Shown here one piece after another: positions 1,381-21,574 of a stretch of DNA of 64,000 bases; positions within the stretch are counted from its first letter, which is position 1; every line of letters starts with the position of its first letter. The notes beneath the pieces are model-generated. The model was not told the origin of the DNA. It saw nothing but the letters and a program-made list of their open reading frames with translations, and did not search any database. This stretch comes from Ignavibacteriota bacterium (GTDB lineage: Bacteria; Bacteroidota; Ignavibacteria; UBA10030; UBA6906): positions 34,018 to 98,017 of the forward strand of contig CAVVIT010000008.1 in assembly GCA_963748405.1 (NCBI GenBank). The letters are read 5' to 3'. The position numbers and the translations under genes are program-made.

Positions 1381-1648
1381 TGTTTCACCGACTTGCCGGG
1401 ACAAACGTCACCCTGGCAGCTGCCGCAAACGATACCACCTCTCAGCCGCCCGATACCTCATGCAGAAAGCCTCCTGCTCCATGGAGGGTCTCCGGACCTG
1501 GTCCTGCGACGTGTCCAATATTGTTGATTTTGTGGACACGTTTCTGTAACGTGTCCATGTCGTGTACACGTTCGGAAACGGCCCTTTCTCCTTACACGGG
1601 GGCCAAGCGTGAAGGAGAAACGTGGAAACTTCACCATCAGGGAGGTCA

Positions 1649-2734
1649 ATGGTGTTTGACCCGAAGGTCCCGTATAACGATCTGCCGCCGATTCCCCCGC
1701 ATGCGGAAATTGACACCAAGGCTGTGCTCAGGAAGGTCGCGGCTGCGGGTCGCTCCCTTGCTGAACTCAAGGGCCTGGGAGCGACGATCCCCAACCAGTC
1801 CATCCTGGTGAATTCTCTTGTGCTGAGGGAAGCGAAAGCAAGCTCTGAAATTGAGAACATCGTTACAACAAACGATGCGCTCTTCAGGGCATTGGCGGCA
1901 AATTCGTCGAACGTGGATCCGGCAACCAAAGAAGTGCTCCAATACCGGGCCGCGCTCTGGGAGGGATTCAATGAGCTGAAGAACCGAGGGCTCATGACAA
2001 CAAACCTCTTCATCAGGATGGTGCAGACGATCGTACAGAACCAGGCGGGCATTCGGGTACTTCCCGGTACGGTGATTCAAAACACGAAGACGGCTGAAGT
2101 CCTTTATACCCCCCCGCTGGGGGAAAGCGTAATTCGCGAGAAACTGAAAAATCTCGAAGAGTATATTCACGGAAACGACGAGACAGACCCGCTCATCAAG
2201 CTGGCGATAATTCACTATCAGTTTGAAGCAATCCATCCGTTCTCCGACGGCAACGGGCGCACCGGTCGAATCATTAACAGTCTGTTTCTCGTTCAGAAGG
2301 GACTTCTGGATCTGCCGGTGCTCTACTTGAGCAAGTACATCATTGAGAGCAAAGGGGATTACTATGCTCTCCTGCGGGCGGTAACGTCAAAAGGGGAATG
2401 GGAGAAATGGATCCTCTATATGCTCGACGGAATTGAGAACACGGCGGTAGAAACCCGCGAAAAGATAGTCTCAATCCGGAATCTGATCGATCGGACGATT
2501 GAATCAGGCAAGAAGAGACTGCCCTCCAGGGTCTATTCCAAAGAACTGATAGAGCTCCTGTTTAACCAGCCCTATACAAAAACGCAGACGATTGTCGATG
2601 CGGGTCTCGCCGAGCGGAAGACCGCCGCGGTGTACCTCAGGGAGCTGGAAAGGGCGGGGATACTTCGCAGCAAGAAATCGGGAAAGGAAGTGCTGTTCCT
2701 CAACGTAAAGCTGTTTCAGCTCCTGTCGAAGTGA
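1649..2734 (+). CDS. Fic family protein (class II, AMPylase-type) with C-terminal wHTH-like tail
   Basis: ATG at 1649 is preceded by GGAGG (1641-1645). Fic motif HPFSDGNGRTGR. Inhibitory-helix motif SSEIEN fits [ST]xxxE[GN]. N-terminus VPYNDLPPIPP is typical of the Fic_N region. Confidence 0.9.
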   Translation: MVFDPKVPYNDLPPIPPHAEIDTKAVLRKVAAAGRSLAELKGLGATIPNQSILVNSLVLREAKASSEIENIVTTNDALFRALAANSSNVDPATKEVLQYRAALWEGFNELKNRGLMTTNLFIRMVQTIVQNQAGIRVLPGTVIQNTKTAEVLYTPPLGESVIREKLKNLEEYIHGNDETDPLIKLAIIHYQFEAIHPFSDGNGRTGRIINSLFLVQKGLLDLPVLYLSKYIIESKGDYYALLRAVTSKGEWEKWILYMLDGIENTAVETREKIVSIRNLIDRTIESGKKRLPSRVYSKELIELLFNQPYTKTQTIVDAGLAERKTAAVYLRELERAGILRSKKSGKEVLFLNVKLFQLLSK

Positions 2735-2825: not shown

Positions 2826-3704
2826 TCACTCCCCTGCGAGACGTCTCCAGGCGGCCGCCGAGGCGGCGGAATAGATCTGAGTCAATGCCGGGAGAAACTG
2901 CTCCGCGCCCCTCCAGAATCGGAACGGGCCCAGTTGCCTGGGGAGGGCGGCCGCGACCCGCGGGATCGTTGTCCCGGGCATGGTCTCGGCCTGCTGTGTC
3001 GGGGCAGTCCAGAACTTGCCGGGATCCGCCGGGAGCTGTTCGACAGGGCCCGGGGTTCGCCTCGCCCGCTGCGTGCCCCCGGCGCGTTCGCGGACCAATG
3101 TTCCTCCCCCCGCGGATCGAATCTGGGACAGGAGTTTGTCCCTTTCAATCCCCCGCATCCTGAATATGAGGAAGGGGTCGTTGTCGAATGCCTCCCCCAG
3201 AAGATAGTACACAGCGGCGATGTGCTTGCAGGGGTTTGACCAGTCCGGGCAGCTGCACTCGGTCTTCAGATCGCCGCGTTCCTTCGGGAAGAGTGTGCCT
3301 CCCGTTCCTCTGAACGCCTCCTCGATATTCGCGGGCATTTCGCCCCGCAGGAGCTGGGCGGCGAACATCACCTTCGTCGCAAGAGTCTTAGCGAGGGCTT
3401 TGGAAGTCCGGAGGGACAACGTCTTCACGCGGATTGCGACATCGTAGGGACGCCGTCGGGATCCCTGCACCTTCGCCCGGATGATTCCCGGTTCTATCTC
3501 GATCGAAAGCACCTGTCCCGATCTGGCATACTTCCGTCCCCGGCTCAGCCGCGCGCCGATGTCGAACCCCTCAAGCACCTGGATCCAGCGCCTCCCCCAC
3601 CAGCTTTTTCCGAATTGACCGCGCGATGTCTGCGCGATGATTCCCCCTTTGGCCCTGCGGGGAACGGATGGCCGGTAGTAGTTGTCGTCGTAATACCAGC
3701 TCAT
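2826..3704 (-). CDS. SWIM zinc-finger protein
   Basis: CSCPDWSNPCKH matches the CxCxnCxH SWIM signature. Its ATG overlaps the stop of the upstream SNF2 gene (ATGA at 3701-3704). Confidence 0.85.
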   Translation of the reverse strand: MSWYYDDNYYRPSVPRRAKGGIIAQTSRGQFGKSWWGRRWIQVLEGFDIGARLSRGRKYARSGQVLSIEIEPGIIRAKVQGSRRRPYDVAIRVKTLSLRTSKALAKTLATKVMFAAQLLRGEMPANIEEAFRGTGGTLFPKERGDLKTECSCPDWSNPCKHIAAVYYLLGEAFDNDPFLIFRMRGIERDKLLSQIRSAGGGTLVRERAGGTQRARRTPGPVEQLPADPGKFWTAPTQQAETMPGTTIPRVAAALPRQLGPFRFWRGAEQFLPALTQIYSAASAAAWRRLAGE

Positions 3705-6700
3705 ACGTCCTCCACCGTTTCGGTCTTCAGCGTCAGGAGATCCCTCAGCTCGTCATTGGAGAGCTCGGTCAGCCATCCCTCGCCGGAGCCCACCACCTTC
3801 TCGGCGATTCCCTTCTTGCGTTCGATCATTTCGTCGATCTTCTCTTCGAGTGTCCCGGCGCAGACGAATTTGTGCACCTGCACGTTCTTGTTCTGTCCGA
3901 TCCGGTAAGCGCGGTCGGTGGCCTGCTGCTCGACGGCGGGGTTCCACCAGCGGTCGAAGTGAAATACGTGGTTTGCCCCCGTGAGGTTGAGCCCGGTCCC
4001 CCCCGCCTTCAGGGAAAGCACGAACACGGGAGCCCCCTGGCCGTCGGACTGGAACTGTTCCACCATGTCATCCCTGCGTTTCCGCGGAGTCCCCCCGTGA
4101 AGGAAAAGGACCTCGCGCCCGAACGTCTCCTGGAGGTGGGCTTTGAGGATCGCGCCCATCTCGGCGAATTGCGTGAAGACCAGGGCCCTGTCGCGCGTCG
4201 CGATCACCTCCTCGATCATTTCCGTGAGCCGGGCGACTTTTCCGGACCGCCCGGGGATCATCGAGTTGTCCCCGAGAAAATGCGCCGGGTGATTGCACAC
4301 CTGCTTCAACTTCGAGAGCGTGGCGAGTATGATCCCTCTCCGCTTGATCCCGTCCGCCGCCTGCAGCTCCTCTTCCACCACTTTGAGCACGGACTGGTAC
4401 AGCGATGCCTGTTCGCGGGTCAGGGAACAGAAGACCTTCATTTCCATCTTCTCGGGAAGATCGGAAATGATCGACCGGTCGGTCTTGAGCCGGCGGAGGA
4501 TGAACGGACCGGTGATGCGCTTCAACCTGTCGATGGTGTCGCCGTCCTGCCCCGTCTGTATCGGCAGAAAGAACGTGCGTTTGAAATCGGCCTTCGTTCC
4601 GAGCAGCCCCGGGTTGAGGAACTGGAAGAGTGACCAGAGATCGCCGACGTGGTTTTCCACTGGTGTGCCGCTTAACGCAATGCGATAGCCCCCCTGCAGC
4701 TGGAATGCCGCCCGGGATTGCTTTGCTTCCGGGTTCTTGATGTTCTGGGCCTCATCGAGGACGACTCCCGCCCAGCGAACGCCCTGGAGGTACTCGAGGT
4801 CCCTCTGAAGGAGACCGTACGTTGAGATGACCAGGGCGGCGTTCTCCGCCTCGCGCCTGAGCGCGGCCCCCCGTCTTCGGCCGGTACCGTGATGCACCAT
4901 GACAGGAAGGTCCGGCGTGAACCGCGCGGCCTCTTTGCTCCAGTTGTTGACGACCGAGGTGGGGCACACGATGAGCACGGGGAGGCGTTCCCCGGATTCC
5001 CGGTCCCTTTGAACCAGCGCCAGCACCTGGATGGTCTTGCCGAGGCCCATGTCGTCGGCGAGGCACGCGCCGAACCCCCACTGGCGCAGGAATGCCAGCC
5101 ACGAATACCCCCGGAGCTGGTACGGTCTCAGGGCTCCCGATAGCCTCTCCGGAGCTCGAAGCTCTTCAAACGTCTCATGGTTCCTGAGCTTCCTGAGAAG
5201 GGCGCCGATCCACCCCGTGGCGGCGATTTCCGCAACGGGGAGGCCGGCGATCTGACCGGTGCCCGTGAGATCCATGCGGATGATCTCTCCCACGGTCATC
5301 GGGGACCTCTTCGCCGAATCCCAGTTTTCGACCGCCTTCCTCAGTTCATCGGGATGTGCTTCCACCCATTGGCCGCGCAGCTTCACCAGCGGCGCTTTCA
5401 GCCTGGCCAGATCATGGAGCTCCTTCCTCGAGAGCGACGTGTCCCCCAGGGCGATTTCCCACCGAAAGTCGGCGATCGCATCGAACGAGAAGCCCCCCTG
5501 TGCCTGCATTGCGGGTGATGTGACCTTCCCGCGGGCGACAAGACGGAGTTTCGTTCCTTTCTGGCTCCACCAGCCCGGGAGCATCACGCCGTACCCGGCC
5601 TGCTCCAGCGCGACCGCCGTCCCCGCGAGGAATTGATACGCTTCTTCCGTCGTAAGCGTGCATCCCGTGGGCGCCCGTTTCTTCAGGCTCTTCTCTATCT
5701 GGGGGGAAAGCGTTGCCGCGTGTGCCAGGGAGGACAGCGCATAGCTTTTCGTTCCGGGTCCCAGGTGGTTGAGAGACCCCGAACCGGTTGCGCGGGCGTT
5801 CCAGACCCGGTCAAGCGGGAAGAGGAGACTTCTGTCTTCGAGAGACTGAACAAGGTATCCGAGATGCCAGTCTTCCCGCCGCGCGCCTTCGGGCTCCGAC
5901 AGCCGGAAGCAAAGGCGGTAATTCGCATCCTGGACGACATCTACCGGGCTCCGCCAGTCGGCGATTTCTTTTTCGAGTTGAGTGCACTCGCCTCCGTCCA
6001 GGTTCATCGCCCCGTCAGGAGCTTTGAGTGCGCGGAGCCACGCGTCATGAACGGTATTGAAATTCGATGCGCCCGCACCGCTGGCGGCCCATTCCGCATC
6101 GTGCAATTGCGGTCCTGCCGATGATCCCGTCCGTACGAGATGATCCACGAATCCGGCGAGGATCCTCTGGAGCGCGCTCCTGCGGTCCACACGGGTCCCT
6201 GCGCCGGAGGGATCTCCTGAAAGCGCGAGGACGGATGGCGGCATCGACCGGGCAAGTGATGCCGCGTACGCGGCATCCTGTCCCACAAGGACCGGTGCCC
6301 AGGTTGCAGTGCGCTCCTCCTTCGTATGACGGATGCCCGGAAGGAACTGCTGCCTGACGGTGAGTGACTCCGCAAACCGGAATGCGCGCAGGCAGAACAG
6401 GAGGTCTTCGCCGGCGATCGCCCCCGGTGCCAGCACGTTGTCCTCGCCGCACGAAGCGAACAACCCGGCGGCCTCTCCCCAGGAGAGGATGTACACCGGA
6501 ACGTTCCACGGGCTGAGGACGAATTGTTCCCCGGTGTCCGGTATCTGCCCGAGGAGAGGCGATGATGCGGAAGGCATGCGTCCCCTGGAGGGGAGCACGG
6601 CGGTGAAGAGCTTCACTCTCTTTCTGACGGGCGTGAATCCGATCGTTTCCCCGTCAAGCGCGGTCAGATTGCGGGCGGACCCCGCAAAAGGGTGCAAAGG

Positions 6701-6817
6701 GGGATTGTTCTTTGCCTCCCGCTTTGATTTGCGGACGCTGCGGGCGGCCGGCTCTACCGGTACTTCTCCCCAGAGGGCGAGCTCGTTGCCGAGAACCGAA
6801 ACGTGGAGAATGATCAT
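3701..6817 (-). CDS. SNF2-family DEAD/DEAH-box helicase
   Basis: Motif I ADDMGLGKT, motif II DEAQNIKN, motif III LSGTPVEN. Helicase-C block LSLKAGGTGLNLTGANHVFHFDRWWNPAVEQQATDRAYRIGQ. Long N-terminal SNF2-associated region. Confidence 0.9.
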   Translation of the reverse strand: MIILHVSVLGNELALWGEVPVEPAARSVRKSKREAKNNPPLHPFAGSARNLTALDGETIGFTPVRKRVKLFTAVLPSRGRMPSASSPLLGQIPDTGEQFVLSPWNVPVYILSWGEAAGLFASCGEDNVLAPGAIAGEDLLFCLRAFRFAESLTVRQQFLPGIRHTKEERTATWAPVLVGQDAAYAASLARSMPPSVLALSGDPSGAGTRVDRRSALQRILAGFVDHLVRTGSSAGPQLHDAEWAASGAGASNFNTVHDAWLRALKAPDGAMNLDGGECTQLEKEIADWRSPVDVVQDANYRLCFRLSEPEGARREDWHLGYLVQSLEDRSLLFPLDRVWNARATGSGSLNHLGPGTKSYALSSLAHAATLSPQIEKSLKKRAPTGCTLTTEEAYQFLAGTAVALEQAGYGVMLPGWWSQKGTKLRLVARGKVTSPAMQAQGGFSFDAIADFRWEIALGDTSLSRKELHDLARLKAPLVKLRGQWVEAHPDELRKAVENWDSAKRSPMTVGEIIRMDLTGTGQIAGLPVAEIAATGWIGALLRKLRNHETFEELRAPERLSGALRPYQLRGYSWLAFLRQWGFGACLADDMGLGKTIQVLALVQRDRESGERLPVLIVCPTSVVNNWSKEAARFTPDLPVMVHHGTGRRRGAALRREAENAALVISTYGLLQRDLEYLQGVRWAGVVLDEAQNIKNPEAKQSRAAFQLQGGYRIALSGTPVENHVGDLWSLFQFLNPGLLGTKADFKRTFFLPIQTGQDGDTIDRLKRITGPFILRRLKTDRSIISDLPEKMEMKVFCSLTREQASLYQSVLKVVEEELQAADGIKRRGIILATLSKLKQVCNHPAHFLGDNSMIPGRSGKVARLTEMIEEVIATRDRALVFTQFAEMGAILKAHLQETFGREVLFLHGGTPRKRRDDMVEQFQSDGQGAPVFVLSLKAGGTGLNLTGANHVFHFDRWWNPAVEQQATDRAYRIGQNKNVQVHKFVCAGTLEEKIDEMIERKKGIAEKVVGSGEGWLTELSNDELRDLLTLKTETVEDV

Positions 6818-7000: not shown

Positions 7001-9976
7001 TCAGTGCACAGGCATACTCAGCTGTTTCATCCTCCCCCTCGCATCCGCCATCTCCGGCCATTCCTTCTCGGCGTCTTTCCACGTCTCGAGAAACGTTTCA
7101 TACTCCTTGATTGCTTTCGCATTCTCCCCCTGTTGCTCATATGCGACCCCGAGCCAGTAGTGTGCCTTGACGGCCCCGATGGGCCAGTACATGTACGTTG
7201 TGAGACCGAAAAGACTGATCGGAGGATATGATATTGGACTCATCCAGGTCATCCGTTGAAACTCCTGTATCGCGTCGGCTGTCCGGCCGGTCTTCAAAAG
7301 TGCCACGGCGTAGAAGTACTGCGGCATATGATTGGGGAATTCCTGCTGCATTGTCGCCGCGAAATGGGTCAGAGCGTCCTCGAACTTCCCCTGTTCAAAT
7401 GCAAGGAGGCCGGCGAGATACCCGGTTGTCCGGTGCGCATTCGGGAACTCTTCCGCCTTTATCGTTGCAGCCTCGCTGCAGAGGTGCAATGAGCGCTCAG
7501 TCTCTCCGCTTTTCATAAGCGCCCACGCCACGAAATCGCGCCCGTAAAGAACATTGGAGGGACTCCTGTGTAATTGCTGCGAATACTCGGAGGCGACCTT
7601 CATCATCGTGGCGTAGTCACCCATCTCATATGAGATGTTGATAACGGCCTCATAGATCAGGCCAATCTGTTCGGCTCGGAAACTCTCAATTTCCTTCGAA
7701 GAAAGCAGCCCGGTGAGGCCATCCCGCGCTTCGGCAAACCTGCCGCGATGACCGGGAATCAGGTTACGGGATGCCATGGCCTCGATCTTCTGCAGCGGAT
7801 CGGACGTCGATCCCAATCTCCCGAAATACTCCGCAGACGTTGCATAGTCCCCGCGAAGGAGGGCAATCTGACCCACGGCCAGGCAGGAGGTAAAGTCAGC
7901 TCTCTGAGCGATCGCGCGCTTGAACCAGTAGATCGCAGAATCGGGCTCACCGGCCATGAGGAAGATCTCCCCTTTGCTGTCGTAGGGGTTTGGTTCGGCG
8001 GGTGCGAGCGCAATGTAGCGGTCGGCGGTGTGCAGCGCCTCCGTTGTCTGGCCCAGTGCCGTCTGCAGGTACGCCTGGAAATTCAGAAGGAATTTGTCCT
8101 GCGGGTTTGCCGCAAGCACACGGTCCAGAACGCCTCTCGCATGATCAAAATCCCTCTGGTTGACATAGATGTCGTGAAGGTCCACCGCAGCGAGCGTTTC
8201 GTGGGGATACCGTTGTACGAATTGTTCCAGGATCCCTGCGGCCTTTGGATAGTCGTGCAGGACGGTGGAAACGTATGACGCCTCAATCTGCAGCCGCTCC
8301 CGTTCAGCCACCCGATCCTTAAGCGCCCATGCCTTCTCAAGTGATTCTCTCGCTCCGGTCCCGTCACCCGTGCTCATCTTCACCGCGGTAAGCTCGAAGT
8401 ATGCCATGGCGAAATTCTGGTCCAGCTCGATTGCCCTCTCCAGCGCCGCCTCCGCCTCGGGAAAGTAGTATTTGATTTCAAGTTCGAGTCCTTCCACGTA
8501 CGAACGGTATGCTTCGGGAGATGTGGTCGTCACTTCGGCGACGGACTTCTCGCCGGCGACCCCCGGGGTCCCCACCTTCAAATCTTCCTGCACAAGGGCG
8601 GAGAGACTGTCGACAAGGGCGAAGATTCGCTCCCCCGAATATCCGGTAAGCCGTTGAGACGCGATGATCTTCCCGCTCTGCACATCGATGAGGCGAGCGG
8701 TAACCGCAAGGGAGGGGGATTCCTGAATGACGCTCCCGAGCAGCATGGTCCTCACGCCGGCGCGCTGGGCTATCTGTGTCGCAAGAGAGGGGGTGATGGA
8801 TTTGGCCTCGCCGTGCCCGAGGTCCTTTTGAATGTCGTAGAGACGTTCCCTGCTGATCACGTCAAGCCCCCTGGCCTGTGAGAGGGAAGTGATCAGGAGA
8901 TTTACGAGCATCTCCCCGTTGTGATCCTTGTCCTCCGGGTCGGGAATGTTCTCAAAGTACATCACAGCGACCGAGTTCTGTCCGCTTGCCAGGCCTTTTT
9001 GAGGACCGATCTGCAGGTTAAAGGGATTGAATATGACCATAAGGACTGCCACCCCCACAACCGCGCAGGCGGCAATTGCATATCTGAGAATTCGTGACGT
9101 TCCCGCCCGGGGCTTTGCCGGCACGGAAGAGGCTGCCGGCATGAGGCCTGATTTCACGTATTCGAGTGCTTTCCTCTCGTGACGAAGGTCGGCAAGAAGA
9201 TCATCTGCATGCTGATAGCGCTCGTCCCGGTCCTTGGCAAGCGCTTTTGACACAATCTTCTCGAGCCGCGGAGAAACCCGGTTATTGAATCGTGCAATCA
9301 GCTGGGGGTCCTCGTTGATAATGGAGTAGATGATCGCTGACTGGTGTTCGCCGCGGAACGGCAGCTGGCCTGTCAGGAGTTCGTACAGGACTATCCCGAG
9401 CGAGAAAAGGTCGCTCCGGCGGTCGATCTCCTCCCCCTGCGCCTGCTCGGGCGACATGTAGGATGCCGTGCCGAGTGTTGAGCCCGCCCGCGTCAGTTTG
9501 CTTGCCCCTTTCAGCTTGGCCAGTCCGAAATCCATGATCTTCGCCTGGCCGCGCGGCGTGAGCATGATGTTGTCGGATTTGATATCCCGGTGGACAATCC
9601 CCTTCTCGTGCGCCATAGCAAGGCCTTCGCAGACCTGTATGCCGATGTCGAGCACACCTCTGATCGAAAGCTGCTCAGATTCGACGATCTGTCGAAGCGT
9701 TCTTCCCTCGCAATACTCCATCGCGATGAACATGTTCCCTTCGACTTCATCGATTTCATAGATCGTCGTGATGTTGGGATGATTGAGTGCGGAGGCGGCT
9801 CTCGCCTCGTGCACAAAGCGCTCTTTCTCCAGCGGGTCCGAAGTCAAGTGTTGAGGGAGGAACTTCAGCGCGACCGGCCGGTCGAGCTTCATGTCCTGTG
9901 CTTTGTACACGACGCCCATCCCCCCTTCGCCGAGCTTCTCGAGGATCTTGTAGTGGGAAATCGTCTGGCCGATCAT
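7001..9976 (-). CDS. Ser/Thr protein kinase with TM segment, TolB_N-like periplasmic module and TPR repeats
   Basis: Start placed at MIGQTISHYKILEKLGEGGMGVVYKA (ATG 9974-9976), by homology with the paralog at 12079..14394. Motifs HRDIKSDNIM, DFG, SPE. TM segment AIAACAVVGVAVLMVIF. C-terminal TPR-like repeats. Confidence 0.9.
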   Translation of the reverse strand: MIGQTISHYKILEKLGEGGMGVVYKAQDMKLDRPVALKFLPQHLTSDPLEKERFVHEARAASALNHPNITTIYEIDEVEGNMFIAMEYCEGRTLRQIVESEQLSIRGVLDIGIQVCEGLAMAHEKGIVHRDIKSDNIMLTPRGQAKIMDFGLAKLKGASKLTRAGSTLGTASYMSPEQAQGEEIDRRSDLFSLGIVLYELLTGQLPFRGEHQSAIIYSIINEDPQLIARFNNRVSPRLEKIVSKALAKDRDERYQHADDLLADLRHERKALEYVKSGLMPAASSVPAKPRAGTSRILRYAIAACAVVGVAVLMVIFNPFNLQIGPQKGLASGQNSVAVMYFENIPDPEDKDHNGEMLVNLLITSLSQARGLDVISRERLYDIQKDLGHGEAKSITPSLATQIAQRAGVRTMLLGSVIQESPSLAVTARLIDVQSGKIIASQRLTGYSGERIFALVDSLSALVQEDLKVGTPGVAGEKSVAEVTTTSPEAYRSYVEGLELEIKYYFPEAEAALERAIELDQNFAMAYFELTAVKMSTGDGTGARESLEKAWALKDRVAERERLQIEASYVSTVLHDYPKAAGILEQFVQRYPHETLAAVDLHDIYVNQRDFDHARGVLDRVLAANPQDKFLLNFQAYLQTALGQTTEALHTADRYIALAPAEPNPYDSKGEIFLMAGEPDSAIYWFKRAIAQRADFTSCLAVGQIALLRGDYATSAEYFGRLGSTSDPLQKIEAMASRNLIPGHRGRFAEARDGLTGLLSSKEIESFRAEQIGLIYEAVINISYEMGDYATMMKVASEYSQQLHRSPSNVLYGRDFVAWALMKSGETERSLHLCSEAATIKAEEFPNAHRTTGYLAGLLAFEQGKFEDALTHFAATMQQEFPNHMPQYFYAVALLKTGRTADAIQEFQRMTWMSPISYPPISLFGLTTYMYWPIGAVKAHYWLGVAYEQQGENAKAIKEYETFLETWKDAEKEWPEMADARGRMKQLSMPVH

Positions 9977-10095
9977 TGAGCACCTGTACTGGTGAGAATA
10001 TCGCCTGGCAGTGATCTGAGAAAAGCCCTGACGTTGACGGGAGTTACCAGAGGCCACCCGGTGCTGCACTGCGAGTACGGAGATATACCTCCATG

Positions 10096-10737
10096 TCATC
10101 GCCTTGCGTTGATGTGACGGCGCGGCGCTGTCCCCTTTCCAGCTGCAAACTTTGGAAACATCGTTCCGGTTGTCTTTCTGTACTCTCTGTACGGCTTGCC
10201 GAACCTCTCCATCAGGTACGCCTCTTCGCGGGGAATAACCACCAGCCGGATCATCAGGATTCCGGAGATCGCGTATCCGAGGACAATCCAGTGAGACGTC
10301 GCCAATGCCAGGCCTGCAAGGAAGACGCATTCCACTGCATACAGTGGGTGTCGGACGTACCGGTAGGGCCCGCGTGTCACCAGCCTCTGGCTGAAGACCG
10401 CCGAGAACGCCCCCGTAGAGTTGTTGCCCAGGTAACTGAACACCCAGAGGAACAATACAGGTGACGGCAAAACTGCTATTGCACCGAGCGTCCGCATCCA
10501 CGCGGGTGTCTCGATCATTCCCCGGCGAAGCCATGCGGGGCTCACGACGATCACGATCAAGATCGCGTAAAATGGAACTGCCCAGGCCCAGGTGGCGATA
10601 GCCGGAAGGGGGCCGTTCATTGTTGAATAAACGAGCAACGTGTTTCTGCGGGCGGCCAGGTGAAAGTAGAGCCAGACGAGGATGCTTGTCCCGGTACTCA
10701 CCGACAGAATAATCCGGCGTGTCTCTTCTTCCCCCAT
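10096..10737 (-). CDS. ICMT/PEMT-like integral-membrane methyltransferase
   Basis: About 5 TM segments. C-terminal block RGPYRYVRHPLYAVECVFLAGLA...REEAYLMERFGKPYREYRKTT is typical of isoprenylcysteine carboxyl / phospholipid methyltransferase family proteins. Confidence 0.8.
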   Translation of the reverse strand: MGEEETRRIILSVSTGTSILVWLYFHLAARRNTLLVYSTMNGPLPAIATWAWAVPFYAILIVIVVSPAWLRRGMIETPAWMRTLGAIAVLPSPVLFLWVFSYLGNNSTGAFSAVFSQRLVTRGPYRYVRHPLYAVECVFLAGLALATSHWIVLGYAISGILMIRLVVIPREEAYLMERFGKPYREYRKTTGTMFPKFAAGKGTAPRRHINARR

Positions 10738-10800
10738 ATGCCCGATCTGCTGTTTAGCGGTACGTGAGTGGCTCGCTATAGCGTAGGCCGGGTGGCCCCT

Positions 10801-11751
10801 TCAGTCCGGTGATCGCCGCGGTGTACCCTGAACACGCGAAAAGAACAGCCGGACGCCCTCCCTGTGCATCGTTCGGCGCATCCGGCCGATATCGTCCCGG
10901 AACTGGCTGAGTCCGGGGTAGGGGGCTCCGTTACCGATCGGCTTCAGCGTTTCCTCCGCCCGATCGATTCTCTGCAGCACCATCCGGAATAGTCGGTCGA
11001 TTCCGCCGGCTGCAAGCGTCTGCTTGACGGCGATCAGGGCCCGACCGCTCCGTGCCGGACCGGACAGGCTCTTCCCGAGCATGACCCTCGCAACCGAATT
11101 GAATCGCCCCCGGCGCCAATCCTCGTCCAGGTCCTGGAAGTCGTCAAGCAACTGACCGGCAACGGCGATTTCACGCCAGAAGAGTCGCGCCCGCCGAAGA
11201 TCCCTTGATCCGGAATACCGGATACACACCGCGGACGCTCCGATCGTGAAGATTGCGCATACTCTCGCGTATTCGTTCAGGAGCACCGTGGCGCTTCCTT
11301 TGCGAGCTCTCTGCAGTCTGTCAACCCGTGTCTCGCCCCGGATGGTGGCTTCGATGGATGCGAAATACTCCCTCCAGAATCGGGAGCGGTGCGGAAAATG
11401 GCGCAAGAAGGTCCGGACCGATTCACATTGAATCAGGTCTGCGGCGAGTACAAGCCGGCCGGAGTCAGAGACGCGGTCGAGCAGATCGTCCTTGATTCGG
11501 AAAGCAAGGTAGACGCAGAACTGTCCCCAGAGGACGTCGTTCACAAACCGCCTGTCCGTGCTCGATGGTTTTGATCTGTAGCATCCAAGGAGCCAGAGCG
11601 GCAAAAGTACGAAGTGAGGCGGCGGTCCGCCCCCGCTGTTCATTGCCTGGACGGTGCGGGAGCGGACATACCTTTGCAGTTCAACCCGCAATGCCGGGTC
11701 CCACGAAGAAGTCAAACTTCGCAGGCGCTCTCTCATCGGGCTAATCTGCAC
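10801..11751 (-). CDS. phytoene/squalene-synthase-like (class 1 isoprenoid synthase fold) protein
   Basis: GTG start is preceded by GGAGG (4 nt spacer). Two Asp-rich motifs about 120 aa apart: FRIKDDLLD and GQLLDDFQDLDEDWRRGRFN. The second resembles the SQS_PSY signature ..RDvgED.rrGRvYlP. The ~316 aa length fits the family. Confidence 0.55.
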   Translation of the reverse strand: MQISPMRERLRSLTSSWDPALRVELQRYVRSRTVQAMNSGGGPPPHFVLLPLWLLGCYRSKPSSTDRRFVNDVLWGQFCVYLAFRIKDDLLDRVSDSGRLVLAADLIQCESVRTFLRHFPHRSRFWREYFASIEATIRGETRVDRLQRARKGSATVLLNEYARVCAIFTIGASAVCIRYSGSRDLRRARLFWREIAVAGQLLDDFQDLDEDWRRGRFNSVARVMLGKSLSGPARSGRALIAVKQTLAAGGIDRLFRMVLQRIDRAEETLKPIGNGAPYPGLSQFRDDIGRMRRTMHREGVRLFFSRVQGTPRRSPD

Positions 11752-11781
11752 GAATCCTCCGGGTCCATCTTGGGATCCGCT

Positions 11782-12018
11782 TTACCAGAGGAGGTCCTTG
11801 TGAAAGCGCCGGTATTTCCTGACGAGGGCGCTGTAGATTTCGAAGTCTTTCATGGCCCTCTTGTCTGCGCCGAGCTTCTGGAGTTTCTTCATGTCTTTCG
11901 CCGTGATTTGCAGCCTGGAGAGATCGAGTGCCTTCTGCGGGTTCTTCAGCAGGGCTCTGAAGAATTTCGGGTCTTCGACGCAACAGTTAACGACGTGCTT
12001 CAACGTGACTCGTTTCAT
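11782..12018 (-). CDS. small basic protein with NHLP/Nif11-leader-like N-terminal half
   Basis: ATG is preceded by AAGGAG (6 nt spacer). VEDPKFFRALLKNPQKAL resembles the NHLP leader core (..DeaFrqeLlsNPkaaL..). It sits 30 nt upstream of the synthase-like gene. Confidence 0.5.
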   Translation of the reverse strand: MKRVTLKHVVNCCVEDPKFFRALLKNPQKALDLSRLQITAKDMKKLQKLGADKRAMKDFEIYSALVRKYRRFHKDLLW

Positions 12019-12078
12019 GGTGATCTCCTTTGGGGTGGGGGGTGATGATTGCGCCGGGGACCCGGCGGCCGGTCCTGT

Positions 12079-14394
12079 TTATCTGTCCAGCAAGATTCTC
12101 CTGAGCATGTCCTGGTATCGGGGGTTTGAATGCTGTGTGTCCCAGGCGATGTCGATCTTGAGTCCGTTAAGGGACTGCGATTTGTCCCGGTACGCCCGTT
12201 CCAGCCATGAATACGCGTTGCTCGTGTCGCGGAGGATTGCGTACGCCGCGGCGACGTTGTAAGGCTCCACGGTGCCTCCATTCCCCGCCTGCAGGTAGTG
12301 ATTCAGAAGCGCACGTGACCTCCGGACCTGCCCGCAGAATCCAAACATCTGCGAGCAGTTGATCTCGACCCAGCTGTCGTGGGCCGTAATTTCCAGTGCC
12401 CTCTCAAGATAGACGGCGGCGCTATCGCAATCCCCTCTCTGGGCCAAGGCGAATCCCAGGATGAGTGTCAGCGCGGGTTCACCGGGATATCGCTGCAACA
12501 ACTCTCTCGCCTTTTCAATGGCCTCGACATACCGCCTCGCATTCACGTACATCGCCGCCATCCAGAACCCGTGGGGGTCGATCGAAGGGTCGATCTCGGA
12601 AGCACGATGCATCCTGGCGATGGCTTCGTCAAACCTCCCTTGCCATTGGAGCATGTTTGCGTAGGCCTGGTGAATCTGTGCGTCACCGGGGCTGATTTCC
12701 AGTGCATGAGAAAATGCGCCCCCCGCTCCCTTCCAGTCCCACTGCGCTTCATCAAGAATCCCGAGCGCCACCTGGCTGCTGGAGCTTTCAGCATCGAGCA
12801 ACAGGGCCGTCTCGACCGCTCTTCGCATCCGCGGCATAACCTCGGCCTGGGTCCAGAATCCGAAGAAGCTCCCGTACTGGTACATCATAACCGCAAACGG
12901 ATAGAACGGCGGGTACGCGCTATCCAGTGAAATCGCCCGTTCCAGGAGATCCAGGGCGGCCCTGTGCTGGCGCTCGTCGGCACCGATGGTATAGAACGTC
13001 TCCCGGGCCTTCAGATAGAGCTCGTACGCCTTCGGATCGACTTTGCGGGACTGGCTCAGGCGCGTCGCTTCATCGTGCCCCACTTCCACGCGTACCGCAC
13101 GGACGAGCCCCTGTGCGATCTTGCTCTGGAGATCGAGAAGATCCTCGACACTTCCGTCGTAGCTCTCGGACCAGAGCGAGGCGTCCGTTGCAGGATCGAT
13201 CAGGTTTGCGATGACGTGAACGCGGCCGTTCAGGTGGAATATCGATCCGTGCACGAGCGCCGTTGCCCCGAGGTCGCGGGCTATCTCCGCGTAGCTCGCC
13301 TGGCTTCCCTTGAACATCATGGTTGCCCTGACTGAACGCACTTTAAGCGAGGCGACGTGCTGGAGTTTCTCGATGATTTCCCAGCACATGCCGTCGGCCA
13401 GGATCTCCCCGGTGGAGTCCTTCGAGAGATTGTGGAACGGAAGGACGGCGACGCGGTCGGCAACTGCCCCTCTTCCCGAGAGGTAGTACGTCATCAATGC
13501 GGCGAGGATCACACATGCCACCCCCAGGCCGGAGTACAGGAGGCGGCGCTTCCTGGCGGGGGAGGTCTTCGTCCTTGATGAAATGGCGTCGCCGGACCTG
13601 GCGGCTTTCAGGTCCAGGAGAAGTTCGGCGGCAGTCTGATACCGCTCGTTCGGATTCTTTGCCAGTGCCCGAAGACAGATGTTCTCGAGCGGCTCCGGCA
13701 CATCGGGCCGGAGATCCCGCATCGGTTTGGGGTCCGCGTTGAGTATCGAGTAGAGAAGAGCTTCCTCGTACTCGCTCTCAAACGGCGTCTTGCCTGTGAG
13801 CATTTCGTACAGGACGACCCCGAAGGAGAAGATGTCGGAGCGGGCATCGAGCAGCTCGCCGCGGATCTGCTCGGGCGACTTGTACGCGGCCGTCCCGACC
13901 GTGGTCCCCGTCCGCGTGAGCTTCAGTGAACCCTTGACCTTGGCCAACCCGAAGTCCATAACCTTCACCAGGTTATTGGAGTTGACCATGATGTTTTCCG
14001 TCTTGATGTCGCGGTGGACGATCCCGTGGACGTGGGCTTCGTTGAGCGCCTCCGCTATCTGGACGGCGTACTCGATCGCATCGTCAATGTTCTTGACCGG
14101 CAGCAGATCACGAAGGGTCTGCCCGTCCACGTACTCCATGACGATGAACTGCTGTCCATCGTGCTCCTGGACGTCATGGATGGTGCAGATGTGGGGATGG
14201 TTCAGAAGGGCGGCGGCCCTGGCTTCCTCGAGGAGACGGCGGCGTTCGGGGTCGTGGCTCTCGTGGCCGTGGGGTAGGAACTTCAGTGCAACGGCGCGGG
14301 TGAGCGTCAGATCCTCGGCTTTGTAGACGACCCCCATCCCGCCTTCGCCGAGCTTCTCGAGGATCCTGTAGTGCGAGATGATCCTGCCGATCAT
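12079..14394 (-). CDS. Ser/Thr protein kinase with TM segment, TolB_N-like module and TPR repeats (paralog of 7001..9976)
   Basis: MIGRIISHYRILEKLGEGGMGVVYKAED, HRDIKTENIM, DFG. TM segment GLGVACVILAALMTYY. TPR-like C-terminus. An alternative GTG start lies at 14430. Confidence 0.9.
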   Translation of the reverse strand: MIGRIISHYRILEKLGEGGMGVVYKAEDLTLTRAVALKFLPHGHESHDPERRRLLEEARAAALLNHPHICTIHDVQEHDGQQFIVMEYVDGQTLRDLLPVKNIDDAIEYAVQIAEALNEAHVHGIVHRDIKTENIMVNSNNLVKVMDFGLAKVKGSLKLTRTGTTVGTAAYKSPEQIRGELLDARSDIFSFGVVLYEMLTGKTPFESEYEEALLYSILNADPKPMRDLRPDVPEPLENICLRALAKNPNERYQTAAELLLDLKAARSGDAISSRTKTSPARKRRLLYSGLGVACVILAALMTYYLSGRGAVADRVAVLPFHNLSKDSTGEILADGMCWEIIEKLQHVASLKVRSVRATMMFKGSQASYAEIARDLGATALVHGSIFHLNGRVHVIANLIDPATDASLWSESYDGSVEDLLDLQSKIAQGLVRAVRVEVGHDEATRLSQSRKVDPKAYELYLKARETFYTIGADERQHRAALDLLERAISLDSAYPPFYPFAVMMYQYGSFFGFWTQAEVMPRMRRAVETALLLDAESSSSQVALGILDEAQWDWKGAGGAFSHALEISPGDAQIHQAYANMLQWQGRFDEAIARMHRASEIDPSIDPHGFWMAAMYVNARRYVEAIEKARELLQRYPGEPALTLILGFALAQRGDCDSAAVYLERALEITAHDSWVEINCSQMFGFCGQVRRSRALLNHYLQAGNGGTVEPYNVAAAYAILRDTSNAYSWLERAYRDKSQSLNGLKIDIAWDTQHSNPRYQDMLRRILLDR

Positions 14395-15136: not shown

Positions 15137-16828
15137 ATGAGCGGAACACCCCGTGCCAGTTCGTTCATCTCGTTAATCCTCCTCTTGACGTACACATCGG
15201 TCGCCCCGGCCACAGGCAGGAATGGCCTCCGCGTCGACCGGGTAGACTCCCTGCGTATTGATACGCTCGGCATGCGGGTAATGGTGCCGGCGTATTTCGA
15301 CCCCCCGGGCTCTTACTGGCAGCGACTCGAAACGCAGGCGGCCAAAATGCCCGGCCGGCTCTATGCGATTGCCAATCCCAACAGCGGACCCGGCTCCAGT
15401 TACGACGCTTCCTATGCCTCCGCAATCGCCGCGATGCACGCCGATAGTGGAAGGGTGATCGGCTATGTCTGGACGAATTATGGCGCGGTGCCTGTAGCCA
15501 CCGTCAAGTCTCAAGTCGATCAGTGGTATGCGTTCTACCCCGCCCTGGACGGGATATTCTTCGATGGCCAGTCCAACGTGCCCGGCCAGGAGCCCTACTA
15601 TCAACAGCTGTACAACTACGTCAAGCAAAAGGATTCCGCGTCACTGGTGGTGGGAAACCCCGGAGCGAACACGCTGGAAAGCTACCTCTTTTACAACGGG
15701 CAGCGCGTAACGGACGTGATCTGCATTTTCGAAACGAATGTCGGTTTCGACTCCTGGACACCTCCGTTGTGGGCCGCCAAATACAGCAGGGACAATTTCT
15801 ATATCATCGCCTACAACACGCCCATCGGCCAGCTTGTGAGCCGGGTACAGCGGGCCGCCTCCTCGAATGTCGGGTGGACGTATGTGACGGATGCGACGCT
15901 CCCGAACCCCTATGATGTGCTCCCCGCGTATTTCGAAGACTACTGCAACTATATCGTCACCGGAGTCCCTCCTCCCCCTTCGGGCGGAAGCGGCGGCGTG
16001 ATCACCATTGACGGGAAATTCAGCGATTGGAAAGGCCTCTCCCCGCTCAGCCCGGCGCCGAATTACCCCTCGACGGATCCCACGGCGAGGATCACAAACG
16101 TCTGGGCGACGAACGACACTGCGAATCTCTATCTGAGCTACCAAGTCGCGGGCAATATCGATGCATCAAAGAACTTCTACCACATATTCCTTGATATCGA
16201 CCGGGACACTGCGATCGGGAAGACGGGCTATGTGTACAACGATAGCGCTTCGATCGGTGCGGAATACATGGTTGAGAACTCCTCGTTCTGGAAGTACAAC
16301 GGGTCCGGAGGGGCCAATTGGTCCTGGGTTTCCGCCGCGGGGATGAAGAAAGCCGATAGCGCAGGGAGAACCGAGCTGAGCCTCCCCCTGAACGTTCTCT
16401 TTCCGGGTCAAAACCAGGGGATAGTCCAGTTTCTCGTCGAAGTGAACTCTGCTGTGTCCCCCTACGGAATGGTGAATATCGCGCCGGGCAGTTACACAAC
16501 GCAGAGCTATGTGTACCGCACGGCCCTGACGACAGCAATCCTGCCCGGTGCTTCCGGTGCCCCTTCGTCTTATTCGCTCTCCCAGAACTATCCCAACCCG
16601 TTCAACCCGACCACGGCGATTCATTACGCGCTGGAAAAGTCGGGGCCCGTCAGGCTGAGAGTGTTCGACATCCTGGGCCGGGAGGTGGCCACGCTTGTTG
16701 AAGGTTACCAGAGTGCGGGGACTCATGTGGTCACATTCGATGGCACCGATTGTGCGAGCGGCGTGTACGTGTATTCGCTCCAGGCAGGCGGCGAAGTATT
16801 CGTTCGGAAGATGCTGCATCTCAAATGA
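15137..16828 (+). CDS. spherulin-4 family (GH135-like) glycoside hydrolase with beta-sandwich module and T9SS C-terminal sorting domain
   Basis: Pattern VPAYFDP..W, IANPNSGPG, GYVWTNY, GIFFDG, VVGNPG and IFETN parallels fungal Sph3 / spherulin-4 family. Signal-like N-terminus. CTD NYPNPFNPTTAIHYAL...VYVYSLQAGGEVFVRKMLHLK. Confidence 0.75.
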   Translation: MSGTPRASSFISLILLLTYTSVAPATGRNGLRVDRVDSLRIDTLGMRVMVPAYFDPPGSYWQRLETQAAKMPGRLYAIANPNSGPGSSYDASYASAIAAMHADSGRVIGYVWTNYGAVPVATVKSQVDQWYAFYPALDGIFFDGQSNVPGQEPYYQQLYNYVKQKDSASLVVGNPGANTLESYLFYNGQRVTDVICIFETNVGFDSWTPPLWAAKYSRDNFYIIAYNTPIGQLVSRVQRAASSNVGWTYVTDATLPNPYDVLPAYFEDYCNYIVTGVPPPPSGGSGGVITIDGKFSDWKGLSPLSPAPNYPSTDPTARITNVWATNDTANLYLSYQVAGNIDASKNFYHIFLDIDRDTAIGKTGYVYNDSASIGAEYMVENSSFWKYNGSGGANWSWVSAAGMKKADSAGRTELSLPLNVLFPGQNQGIVQFLVEVNSAVSPYGMVNIAPGSYTTQSYVYRTALTTAILPGASGAPSSYSLSQNYPNPFNPTTAIHYALEKSGPVRLRVFDILGREVATLVEGYQSAGTHVVTFDGTDCASGVYVYSLQAGGEVFVRKMLHLK

Positions 16829-19825: not shown

Positions 19826-21574
19826 ATGAAAAAGACATTTCCAATGGCGCTGCTTGCGGTCATTGTATCTGTTTTCCTGGCGAGTCCCGTGCAGGCGCAT
19901 ACCAGCGCAACGGACACGCTCGTCGTTTATGCGAGCGGGGCGAGTCTCGACCAGATCATCACCGCCGATACGACCGCGAATGGTAACCAGGTGCACAAGG
20001 CGTACAAATTGGTGACCGTCGACACGACGTACCTGTGGCTCGGACCGATCACTGTCAAGACGAATTTCACCGTTCTCGGAGTCCTCGGCGCGAACGGCCG
20101 ACCGCCGTGCATCGAGGCAGGCATTTTGCTCGACGGCACGCTGCCGTATTACCTGTTCGTGATCAACGGACCGCATACGGTCGCCACGTTCAAGAACCTG
20201 TATCTCACGGGGAGGGCCCCGAACAACACGTTGAATGCGCTCAACGTGAACGGCATCGGGTCGTTTATCCAGGTCTCGGCGGATTCGGTGAAGCTCTATG
20301 TGGACCACGTGATTTTCGAGGACATGCCGGATGAATGCATAGGATACACCGGGAACTGGGACAGCTTCTTCATCACTAACTGTAAATTCAGGAATCTGAT
20401 CTCCGCCACGCAGTGGTTCTCCGGGGAAGCGCTGCGCAACACGAACAACTCGGCGATAACGGATACCATCTCCATGCATGACAACACGTTCCTTGCAATG
20501 AACTGCTACGACGCGTGCCCGGTCACCGTCAGTTTCGTCCGGTATCTCGATTTCGAGCATAACAGCGATGTGATGACGTTTCAGAATCCCTTCTGGATTT
20601 TCAACGTCACCAACGCCAAGATCGACAACAACATGTTCTATGGAACCTGGCTGGGGGGAATCACGCAGATCGAGTACGTGCAGTTCTGGGATGAGTTGAG
20701 GTCGCTCGCCATCCCCTCCGTCCTCGATCTGGACACTCTGGGCGGCGATATACCCAGGGTCTTCGACCCGGCGGATACGGGCTCCGCAAACCTGCTGTGG
20801 CTCGCGGAGGCGAAAAGGAATATCGAAGTGAAGAATAACAATTTCTTTGAGCCGGCCTCGGTCACTAATTTCTGGAAAGCGTACGATGATACCGCCCACG
20901 GCGACGATTCACTGTTTACTCCGACGTGGATGAATGCACGAACGACGGGGATGTTTAACGACAAGGTGCACTGGCCGGGATTGGTCCAGTCGGGCAACCT
21001 GAACGTCGATCCCGGGTACGGCGCTTCGATTCCCAATGTCGTGAACAACAACCAGGGAGATGGTGTCGGGGCGTTCCAGTACTTCTTCGATATTCGCCAG
21101 AACATCGCGTCCACGGATATCTACGGTTACAAGCTGCAGACCGCCGCAGGCAACAACTGGATCCCCCAGTGGCCGCTTCCGGAGCTTCAGGACATGAAGT
21201 ACACGAGCACGGCGCTGCAAACGGGGGGGACGGACGGAAAACAGATCGGCGACAGGGGCTGGTTTACCGGTGGCTTCACGGGTGTGAGCCCGACCCCGGC
21301 GCAGGAGCCCTATCAATTTGCGCTTGCGAATGCCTATCCCAATCCGTTCAACCCCACTGCACACATTGAGTACACGATTCCGCACAGCGGTTTCGTGACG
21401 CTGAAAGTGTTCAACGTGCTGGGGCAGGAGGTAGCGACATTGTTCTCGGGCATCCAGCAGGCCGGAAACCATGTTGCCATATTCGACGCAAGCACGCACG
21501 CCAGCGGAGTATACATCTACCGGCTTGATGCGGACAATTATTCTGCCAGCAAAAAGCTTGTCCTTGTTAAGTGA
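19826..21574 (+). CDS. secreted T9SS-sorted protein, possible right-handed beta-helix
   Basis: Signal peptide MKKTFPMALLAVIVSVFLASPVQA. Repetitive N/D-rich strands (FITNCKFRN, MHDNTFLAMN, FEHNSDV, IDNNMFYG, VKNNNFFE). CTD AYPNPFNPTAHIEYTI...VYIYRLDAD. Confidence 0.7.
   Translation: MKKTFPMALLAVIVSVFLASPVQAHTSATDTLVVYASGASLDQIITADTTANGNQVHKAYKLVTVDTTYLWLGPITVKTNFTVLGVLGANGRPPCIEAGILLDGTLPYYLFVINGPHTVATFKNLYLTGRAPNNTLNALNVNGIGSFIQVSADSVKLYVDHVIFEDMPDECIGYTGNWDSFFITNCKFRNLISATQWFSGEALRNTNNSAITDTISMHDNTFLAMNCYDACPVTVSFVRYLDFEHNSDVMTFQNPFWIFNVTNAKIDNNMFYGTWLGGITQIEYVQFWDELRSLAIPSVLDLDTLGGDIPRVFDPADTGSANLLWLAEAKRNIEVKNNNFFEPASVTNFWKAYDDTAHGDDSLFTPTWMNARTTGMFNDKVHWPGLVQSGNLNVDPGYGASIPNVVNNNQGDGVGAFQYFFDIRQNIASTDIYGYKLQTAAGNNWIPQWPLPELQDMKYTSTALQTGGTDGKQIGDRGWFTGGFTGVSPTPAQEPYQFALANAYPNPFNPTAHIEYTIPHSGFVTLKVFNVLGQEVATLFSGIQQAGNHVAIFDASTHASGVYIYRLDADNYSASKKLVLVK

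Follow-up and report, generated by a model that had tools for sequence, protein, structure and literature searches.

A group of five genes on the minus strand of a 64,000-nucleotide stretch of DNA from an Ignavibacteriota bacterium (contig CAVVIT010000008.1, positions 34,018 to 98,017; the whole of this stretch is called the window below) appears to join the making of a lipidated peptide to the means of sensing it. The genes encode a Ser/Thr kinase with a transmembrane helix (TM) and tetratricopeptide repeats (TPR), here STK1; a 78-aa protein; a 316-aa enzyme; a 213-aa membrane methyltransferase; and a second kinase, STK2. We consider it probable, if well short of assured, that this module is a prenyl-Trp peptide system of the PalPXQ/ComQXPA kind, to which has been added a carboxyl methylation of the prenylated C-terminal Trp that would parallel the processing of CaaX proteins. 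The decisive feature is the C-terminal Trp of the small protein, overlooked in an earlier note on this DNA. The elements of the locus are as follows.

12079-14394, minus strand: STK1, 771 aa, ATG at 14394; Hanks-type Ser/Thr kinase-TM-TPR protein
12025-12030, minus strand: AAGGAG Shine-Dalgarno sequence of the precursor gene, 6 nt before ATG 12018, read from the sequence
11782-12018, minus strand: putative precursor peptide, 78 aa; leader of the nitrile hydratase-like leader peptide (NHLP) clan and short variable tail
11785-11787, minus strand: TGG codon of the C-terminal Trp78, predicted prenyl acceptor; stop codon immediately after
10801-11751, minus strand: PalQ-like enzyme with a trans-isoprenyl diphosphate synthase (trans-IDS) fold, 316 aa, soluble; GTG start
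11476-11490, minus strand: first aspartate-rich motif (FARM), D88-D89-L-L-D92; aligns with PalQ FARM D89/D90/D93
11119-11154, minus strand: Gln and second aspartate-rich motif (SARM), Q200-L-L-D203-D204-F-Q-D207-L-D-E-D211; Asp columns invariant, Q200 at least 90%
10096-10737, minus strand: ICMT/PEMT-family polytopic membrane methyltransferase, 213 aa; Pfam PEMT and ICMT
10336-10371, minus strand: methyltransferase cofactor/catalytic motif GPYRYVRHPLYA; aligns with Ma-ICMT 4A2N
10180-10233, minus strand: methyltransferase cofactor/catalytic motif PREEAYLMERFGKPYREY; aligns with Ma-ICMT 4A2N
7001-9976, minus strand: STK2, second Ser/Thr kinase-TM-TPR protein, 991 aa; Pkinase 8.4e-55, many TPRs

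Experiments have shown that PalQ of Paenibacillus alvei, a trans-IDS-like enzyme, prenylates the C-terminal Trp of the NHLP-type peptide PalX at C3; it acts solely on a C-terminal Trp, and is encoded beside the histidine kinase PalP (PMC10853753). Genuine PalQ-family sequences were recovered for profile comparison with the family of the 316-aa protein. Aligned by hhalign, the window family (alignment A2) and the PalQ family (A3) matched at 99.3% probability (E 3.5e-20) over 282 columns, with FARM, an S-x-FW motif and Q-x-x-D-D-x-x-D in register; the window protein alone matched the PalQ family at 96.3% (E 2e-9). Reciprocal searches with hidden Markov models (HMMs) of the two families found every member, at about 50-74 bits. 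Pfam and NCBIfam hold no family that the 316-aa protein matches, the best being polyprenyl_synt at 12 bits and E 0.09. Because of the hhalign result and the reciprocal matches, set against those 12 bits, the enzyme is a distant PalQ homolog, and by profile comparison this peptide Trp prenyltransferase is, by a wide margin, its nearest characterised relative.

The predicted structure agrees as to the fold. A profile search of PDB sequences gave a single match, geranyltranstransferase at E 0.18; sequence alone therefore falls short of the solved structures. The AlphaFold2 model (13-sequence alignment; pLDDT 84, pTM 0.82) is all-alpha, with 12 helices, and the top 50 Foldseek matches to it in the PDB are all trans-IDS or Ord1 at TM-scores of 0.5-0.68, the top ones being trans-IDS at 0.60-0.68 and the Trp farnesyltransferase Ord1 ranking 17th. 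The model and the family alignment bear out the isoprenoid enzyme proposed in the earlier note, a class I fold with two Asp-rich motifs, and the sequences FRIKDDLLD and LLDDFQDLDEDWRRGR which it had picked out are both present. Its comparison with phytoene and squalene synthases must be given up, the nearest folds being trans-IDS and the nearest characterised relative PalQ: the match to PF00494 it had expected is absent even at E<=1, and no SQS, PSY or CrtM structure is among the top 50 of Foldseek. Across the enzyme family PF00494 matches weakly in 11 of 70 members (best 1.3e-5), none of which reaches the Pfam threshold.

A word-indexed search of the family returned only 13 clusters; an exhaustive profile search returned 710 representatives at E<=1e-3, of which 225 reach E<=1e-30. 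The family thus comprises at least 225 clusters (50% identity), spread over Ignavibacteriota/Bacteroidota, Zixibacteria, KSB1, Acidobacteriota, Lentisphaeria and Chromatiales, with no Pfam or NCBIfam model and the annotation 'hypothetical protein' for every member looked up. In an alignment of 70 members, the most distant at 22% identity, no columns are invariant but D88, D89, D92, D203, D204, D207 and D211; N218 and Q200 (at least 90%), the latter one helical turn before SARM, are near-invariant. In PalQ the corresponding residues are D89/D93 of FARM and D200/D204 of SARM, and Q197 has been proposed to contact the indole NH (PMC10853753); in StheQ, a crystallised ComQ homolog, Q212, N215, D216 and D219 have this geometry (StheQ preprint). 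The spacing of Q-x-x-D-D-x-x-D in the window family equals that of Q197/D200/D201/D204 in PalQ and of Q212/N215/D216/D219 in StheQ, and FARM and SARM with a Gln upstream are arranged in the same way in PalQ, StheQ and Ord1. ComQ (compared by description) and StheQ have a pseudo-SARM, N-D-x-x-D, whereas the window family has the full D-D-x-x-D-x-x-x-D.

In the public annotation this protein is 247 aa long, which is probably too short; the 316-aa start is preferred, since conservation among homologs begins at about residue 5 and a GGAGG is found 5 nt ahead of GTG 11751. Two residues of the enzyme, Y179 and K227, are common to both lineages bearing a methyltransferase gene (the window clade and locus L071, below) and seldom seen in enzymes whose precursors have an internal Trp; for K227, contact with a free carboxylate is conceivable, the signal being confounded by phylogeny, and the position differences between enzymes of C-terminal- and internal-Trp loci are mostly phylogenetic signal.

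We collected 95 related loci (numbered L001 onward) from encoding contigs, reference genomes and metagenomes. In these loci an open reading frame (ORF) is repeatedly found immediately ahead of the enzyme gene; its N-terminal part bears the motif …DV…A..D..F…LL.DP..AL…LS..D…L, and a variable tail comes after. The window member has a leader of about residues 1-69 that ends at a conserved RKY, and a tail, RRFHKDLLW, in which Trp is last. The ends of close orthologs are …LLW, …IIW, …PIW, …ILW and …FIW, the preceding residues varying, and all members of the window clade, as well as L071, have Trp at the very end; most precursors of the family have it internally instead, as PPPW or PW with 1-15 residues after it. 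Trp is the sole invariant column in an alignment of 23 precursors (A4). Of the 49 distinct HMM-supported precursors, 46 carry one within the last 20 residues, whereas the figure for control ORFs of these loci is 28% (binomial 2e-22, with no correction for relatedness). The 78-aa ORF is a real gene, under purifying selection: it is conserved at 31-65% identity across orthologous loci, its substitutions gather at the third position of codons, and a TGG before the stop persists although the stop itself varies among TAA, TAG and TGA.

The small protein had been called NHLP-like in the earlier note, and the comparison of its relatives agrees: NF038399, the Os1348 NHLP clan model, is matched at E<=0.01 by 20 of the 23 precursors (best 7.8e-12), and the NHLP leader model by 7 of them. 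With PalX, the precursor profile aligned by hhalign at 92% probability over the N-terminal 32 columns. These matches support placing the precursor at the level of the NHLP clan rather than in strict family membership. Tandem precursor genes are found in L034:5248-5878, with tails …TKVPWGQT* and …IKVPWS*, and in L013:4693-5722, with tails …PPTPWQ* and …PPPPPWVC*. One subfamily (L046:4581-4883, L049, L054) ends in S-W-x-x-W*, as …SWCMW*, …SWVQW* and …SWVEW*, and so has two Trp, one of them C-terminal; no ICMT gene lies nearby.

Upstream of the precursor lies the sensor gene. Among the 44 related loci with at least 2.5 kb of upstream DNA, 42 have a same-strand STK-TM-TPR gene there, and the remaining two have a class III adenylate/guanylate cyclase in place of the kinase domain, on the same TM and TPR sensor. 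No other neighbour recurs across the loci, whether protease, exporter or extra tailoring enzyme, besides sensor, precursor and, in one subfamily, ICMT. Since the sensor is upstream in the surveyed loci and no other gene family is recurrent, the conserved core, as judged from gene order, is sensor, precursor and enzyme. Change of the output domain on a constant sensor is a typical receptor domain swap; this swap, and the pairing of the Firmicute relatives with histidine kinases, argue that the partner is a receptor. The cyclase-TM-TPR genes are L070:2250-4523 (also L033, L072) and L036:3317-5548, and their products resemble TIGR04510, 'putative peptide modification system cyclase'; the middle region of STK2 scores 114.7 bits against the same model, below its cut-off.

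STK1 consists of a kinase domain (residues 1-280, 13555-14394), a single TM (13474-13545) and an extracytoplasmic TolB-N-like and TPR region (12082-13473). It matches Pkinase at 9.8e-52 as well as TPR families and TPR_END_plus, and its kinase motifs GEGGMGVV, VALK, HRDIKTEN, DFG and SPE are intact. STK2 likewise carries the Gly-rich loop, VAxK, HRDxKxxN, DFG and SPE, so that both are Hanks-type. The earlier note had judged the two kinases alike in architecture and about half identical, and both have Pkinase, TM and TPR, with 53% identity over the kinase domain (33% over 714 aa). It had also proposed a five-gene, kinase-controlled module and a search of gene neighbourhoods for co-occurrence of its members. 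Of that proposal the upstream kinase stands, as do precursor and enzyme, with ICMT in one subfamily; STK2 as a core component is rejected, being absent from that position in all related loci and present in the window only. It is an adjacent gene, possibly co-transcribed with the module. The mechanically called 1177-aa ORF at 7001-10534 (minus strand) is a read-through artefact, because the conserved kinase N-terminus (MIGQTISHYKILEKLGEGGMG) begins at ATG 9976 and the part upstream of it overlaps ICMT in a different frame.

In the close orthologs L001, L004 and L006, identity to the window is 80% over the STK1 kinase domain and 82-85% over its ectodomain; among the close orthologs it is 68-73% for the enzyme, 55-63% for ICMT and 58-65% for the precursor, whose tails differ. 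Because the ectodomain is the best conserved part while the tails differ, STK1, if it senses a peptide, probably reads the constant lipidated end and not the variable residues. A locus of another member of the Ignavibacteriota, L037:2743-12794, has four STK-TM-TPR paralogs around one precursor and enzyme pair, which shows heavy amplification of this architecture in the phylum.

The 213-aa protein has the family membership which the earlier note foresaw, both PF04140 and PF04191 scoring above the gathering threshold: PEMT at 45.7 bits (cut-off 25; 1e-11) and ICMT at 34.8 bits (cut-off 24; 2.2e-8). It has at least four hydrophobic segments and is polytopic. Its best solved relative is Methanosarcina Ma-ICMT 4A2N (E 7.2e-16, residues 64-197), and it aligns also with Tribolium ICMT 5V7P over the catalytic region. 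The C-terminal block G-x-Y-x-x-x-RHP-x-Y ... EE-x-x-L-x-x-x-FG-x-x-Y, which the note had likewise recognised, is present as the intact motifs GPYRYVRHPLYA and PREEAYLMERFGKPYREY. Weak matches to MddA and LmtA are seen in addition. By these scores the protein is a member of the ICMT family rather than an equivalog of the Cys-specific enzyme.

The distribution of this gene is what ties it to the C-terminal Trp. It comes immediately after the enzyme gene in the window and in L002/3, L004/42, L005/44, L006/7/40 and L071, and the precursors of these loci all end in aliphatic-aliphatic/Pro-Trp. Among de-replicated lineages for which 700 nt or more of downstream DNA is available, ICMT is present in 6 of the 8 with a strictly C-terminal Trp and in none of the 23 others (Fisher 3.8e-5); at internal-Trp loci no ICMT-type gene appeared even in a relaxed HMM search and a search for the RHPxY motif. 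In L071, which is 52% identical to the window in the kinase (38% in the sensor domain), 31% in the precursor and 35% in both enzyme and ICMT, the four-gene unit is kept, the ICMT start overlapping the stop of the enzyme gene. From family membership and this restriction to C-terminal-Trp loci we infer that ICMT would act on the alpha-carboxylate of the prenylated C-terminal Trp.

The mechanism that we propose runs as follows. The 78-aa protein, with its NHLP-type helical leader and its tail ending in Trp, would be the substrate. The soluble 316-aa enzyme, to judge from its homology and motifs, would bind a prenyl diphosphate via Mg2+ at DDxxD and move the prenyl group onto the indole of that terminal Trp; by analogy, C3 would be the site and a pyrroloindoline ring would close. 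The C-terminus, now lipophilic, would enter the inner membrane, where the ICMT-family enzyme and S-adenosylmethionine would methyl-esterify the alpha-carboxylate of the prenyl-Trp. The leader would probably be cut after the conserved RKY to leave a peptide of about 9 residues, which unlinked functions would export to the periplasm or exterior; cleavage and export together make the weakest step. Outside the cytoplasmic membrane, the TPR domain of the genetically linked STK1 would most likely sense the mature lipopeptide, much as ComP does for ComX. Where the earlier note had offered either a methylated isoprenoid or a prenylated and methylated peptide or lipid, the comparative evidence favours the peptide and disfavours a free isoprenoid. 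It is possible, although we regard it as doubtful, that the module represents an unrecognised form of signalling in the FCB group (Fibrobacterota, Chlorobiota, Bacteroidota) and other uncultured phyla, in which an a-factor-like prenyl-Trp peptide, methylated by ICMT in one subfamily, is read by a TPR kinase or cyclase.

Each of the systems that this mechanism recalls differs from the module in some respect. PalPXQ is the closest: its enzyme is homologous over the full length, with FARM and the Q-x-x-D-D-x-x-D geometry in common; its precursor has an NHLP-type leader that shares the N-terminal motif, and ends in Trp; and a sensor kinase is encoded alongside, with protease and exporter not linked. 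It differs in belonging to a Firmicute, whereas the module is in a Gram-negative, Ignavibacteria-like organism of the FCB group; in gene order, which is enzyme, precursor, convergent kinase as against sensor, precursor, enzyme on one strand; in its partner, a histidine kinase rather than a Ser/Thr kinase of Hanks type bearing a TPR ectodomain; and in having no ICMT-family methyltransferase at its loci. ComQXPA likewise has a trans-IDS-like enzyme and an adjacent small precursor with a near-C-terminal Trp, its product being a secreted pheromone read by the adjacent membrane kinase, and most precursors of the wider family, with internal Trp, resemble ComX and StheX. Membership of ComQXPA itself is rejected: no histidine kinase or response regulator lies next to the module, the partner being a Ser/Thr kinase or cyclase.

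In CaaX processing, ICMT (Ste14 in yeast) methylates the prenyl-Cys once the CaaX end has been processed, and the yeast a-factor so produced is a secreted lipopeptide pheromone. The module is like it in that C-terminal lipidation would be followed by methyl-esterification by a polytopic ICMT-family enzyme. The CaaX acceptor is Cys, in a thioether, and that of the module would be Trp, with a C-C bond expected; the CaaX prenyltransferase is an alpha/beta heterodimer and the module enzyme is trans-IDS-like; and trimming of -aaX would not be needed, because Trp is already terminal. The likeness is to be taken as an analogy of logic, not homology of pathway. A recent review lists ComQ, ChrPC and PalQ as the only trans-IDS-like peptide prenyltransferases, and PalQ as having no InterPro entry (2026; PMC13290415). 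ChrPC, which acts on a Chryseobacterium proteusin, shares with the window enzyme a Bacteroidota host and a trans-IDS-like domain (P), with an internal Trp as acceptor, and as described there is fused to a terpene-cyclase domain, which the window enzyme does not have (Hubrich et al. 2024, via PMC13290415). The earlier note's remark that it knew of no described bacterial system of this composition was too strong, PalP-PalX-PalQ (PMC10853753) and ComQXPA having a like logic; the undescribed parts are the Ser/Thr-kinase partner and the addition of ICMT. Our literature search found no paper in which Trp-prenylated ribosomal peptides are paired with ICMT or with carboxyl methylation, nor any on PalQ-like systems linked to a Ser/Thr kinase.

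A number of observations weigh against a prenylated, methylated and exported peptide, the case for which is built entirely on homology and gene neighbourhood. Identity between the enzyme and PalQ is only about 15-20%, and the enzyme's Gln before SARM does not discriminate, because canonical trans-IDS carry one as well, in their FQ motif. Against NF038399 the window precursor scores 23.9 bits (E 3.3e-5; cut-off 40), and against TIGR03793 12.5 bits (cut-off 50.9); the Gly-Gly type of leader cleavage motif that is typical of classical NHLP peptides is found neither in it nor in its close orthologs. No gene for a protease, an exporter or prenyl-diphosphate supply is linked to the module or nearby in the window, and no transcripts over the region were found, the only runs containing it being DNA metagenomes of freshwater sediment. 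The STK1 ectodomain is, at the sequence level, more conserved than the peptide tails, unlike a pheromone and receptor that diversify together. ICMT-family enzymes are known to methylate non-peptide substrates also, and the score of the 213-aa protein against NF040696 (protein-S-isoprenylcysteine O-methyltransferase) is 73.8 bits, with the equivalog cut-off at 160. The association of ICMT with C-terminal Trp reflects few independent events, namely the window clade and L071, the placement of the latter in a rough neighbour-joining tree being uncertain. Three C-terminal-Trp lineages (L046, L054, L033/70/72) have no ICMT nearby, and in another, Ignavibacteriae fen_1277, a remnant of only the last ~56 codons of ICMT follows the enzyme gene (L001:9076-9243, L009:6959-7126 and L041) while kinase, precursor (…RIIW*) and enzyme are intact; from the sequence of this remnant, the methylation step would seem to have been lost there naturally. 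Given the C-terminal-Trp lineages with no ICMT and the one in which it has decayed, methylation would not be essential.

Part of this evidence would also fit a protein that is prenylated and methylated and stays uncleaved, a membrane-tethered, CaaX-like adaptor with the cytoplasmic kinase domain of STK1 as its target. The want of a leader protease, Gly-Gly site or exporter in or near the module would then be expected, as would the conservation of the leader, including KDF-x-x-Y-x-x-L-x-RKY, to within about 9 residues of the end, and the lack of co-variation between ectodomain and tail; moreover, prenylation with carboxyl methylation is the classical signal for membrane anchoring in eukaryotes (PMC13290415). 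ComX and PalX, though, are cleaved to peptides of 6-10 residues with no linked protease, and an extracytoplasmic TPR sensor that remains constant across output swaps indicates an external ligand, which makes the adaptor unlikely, if still worth serious thought. We are a little more sceptical of an arrangement in which the enzyme prenylates Trp and the ICMT-family protein does something else, whether acting on a lipid, a thiol or a phosphate, providing self-protection, or merely being a clade-specific neighbour. That Pfam PEMT outscores ICMT, that the NCBIfam equivalog cut-off is missed and MddA and LmtA are weakly matched, and that the gene has decayed in one lineage whose module is otherwise intact and is lacking in some C-terminal-Trp lineages would suit it; but the gene occurs only with C-terminal-Trp precursors (0/23 elsewhere), has been kept immediately downstream (63 nt away in the window, overlapping in L071) even where identity has fallen to about 35%, and has a bona fide ICMT fold as its best solved relative.

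Two further explanations were considered. Were the 316-aa protein a synthase of a free isoprenoid, methylated in turn by the membrane methyltransferase and with the small protein as a regulator, its isoprenoid-synthase superfamily fold with two complete Asp-rich motifs, and the weak SQS_PSY and polyprenyl_synt matches of some family members, would be accounted for. Against this, no member reaches a Pfam threshold and PalQ is far closer (53-74 against 12 bits), most of the enzyme family is without ICMT, and the enzyme gene is invariably preceded by the Trp-tailed NHLP-clan ORF; a free-lipid pathway leaves the sole invariant Trp of that ORF unexplained, and we hold it to be very improbable. Hardly to be credited at all is a biosynthetic kinase that phosphorylates Ser/Thr of the precursor ahead of other modifications, in the manner of class III/IV lanthipeptide synthetases. 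Both kinases do match in part the kinase domains of LanL/LanKC and the 'peptide modification system cyclase' model, but these matches cover generic kinase and TPR parts and lie far below the cut-offs, and the role is rejected on topology (a TM helix and large external TPR domain being typical of receptors), on the lack of a conserved Ser/Thr in the precursor tails, and on the replacement of the kinase domain with a cyclase in two lineages. Prenylation of the C-terminal Trp followed by its carboxyl methylation is the explanation that we prefer.

As to the locus itself, all five minus-strand ORFs of the earlier note were found at the coordinates that it gave. Its intergenic gaps of 30-119 nt measure 60, 30, 63 and 119 nt from STK1 to STK2, and the strong AAGGAG which it saw ahead of the 78-aa gene is there, 6 nt upstream of the ATG. 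A scan for promoters and terminators gave counts within chance expectation, with no terminator-like site between any of the five genes, the gap between STK2 and ICMT included; nor are there tRNAs near the module. The nearest related locus is in an Ignavibacteriae metagenome-assembled genome, at 68% identity, and the DNA of the window is ordinary chromosome sequence from a bacterium of the FCB group. At least five window proteins carry C-terminal sorting domains (Por_Secre_tail) of the type IX secretion system (15137-16828, 19826-21574, 38694-39992, 52290-53627 and 62021-63160); one protein so sorted is Spherulin4-like and lies directly upstream of the module, and sugar-utilisation genes and a TonB-dependent receptor come next. 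On the other side, a Fic/DOC protein (1622-2734, plus strand) adjoins a SWIM zinc-finger protein (2826-3704, minus strand), whose gene is overlapped by 4 nt by that of an SNF2/DUF3670 helicase (3701-6817, minus strand), a pair that is recurrent in bacteria.

Peptide Trp prenylation by trans-IDS-like enzymes has been characterised so far in Bacillus, Paenibacillus, Sphaerobacter and Chryseobacterium. PalQ is already in use for the enzymatic lipidation of peptides (PMC13290415), and new enzymes specific for a C-terminal or an internal (PPPW) Trp, with a matching methyltransferase, would widen the toolbox for this purpose. If the proposal is correct, action of ICMT on the carboxylate of a prenyl-Trp would be a new chemistry of ribosomally made, post-translationally modified peptides, and a convergent bacterial counterpart of CaaX processing. 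To our knowledge the role of prokaryotic ICMT homologs has so far been unclear, and the 78-aa protein would, on the same proviso, be the first natural, physiological peptide substrate for one of them. Few orphan sensors in these phyla are as numerous as the STK-TM-TPR proteins, and here one of them has a genetically encoded candidate ligand; if it is indeed the ligand, prenylated peptides would be the first ligand class for these very abundant receptors.

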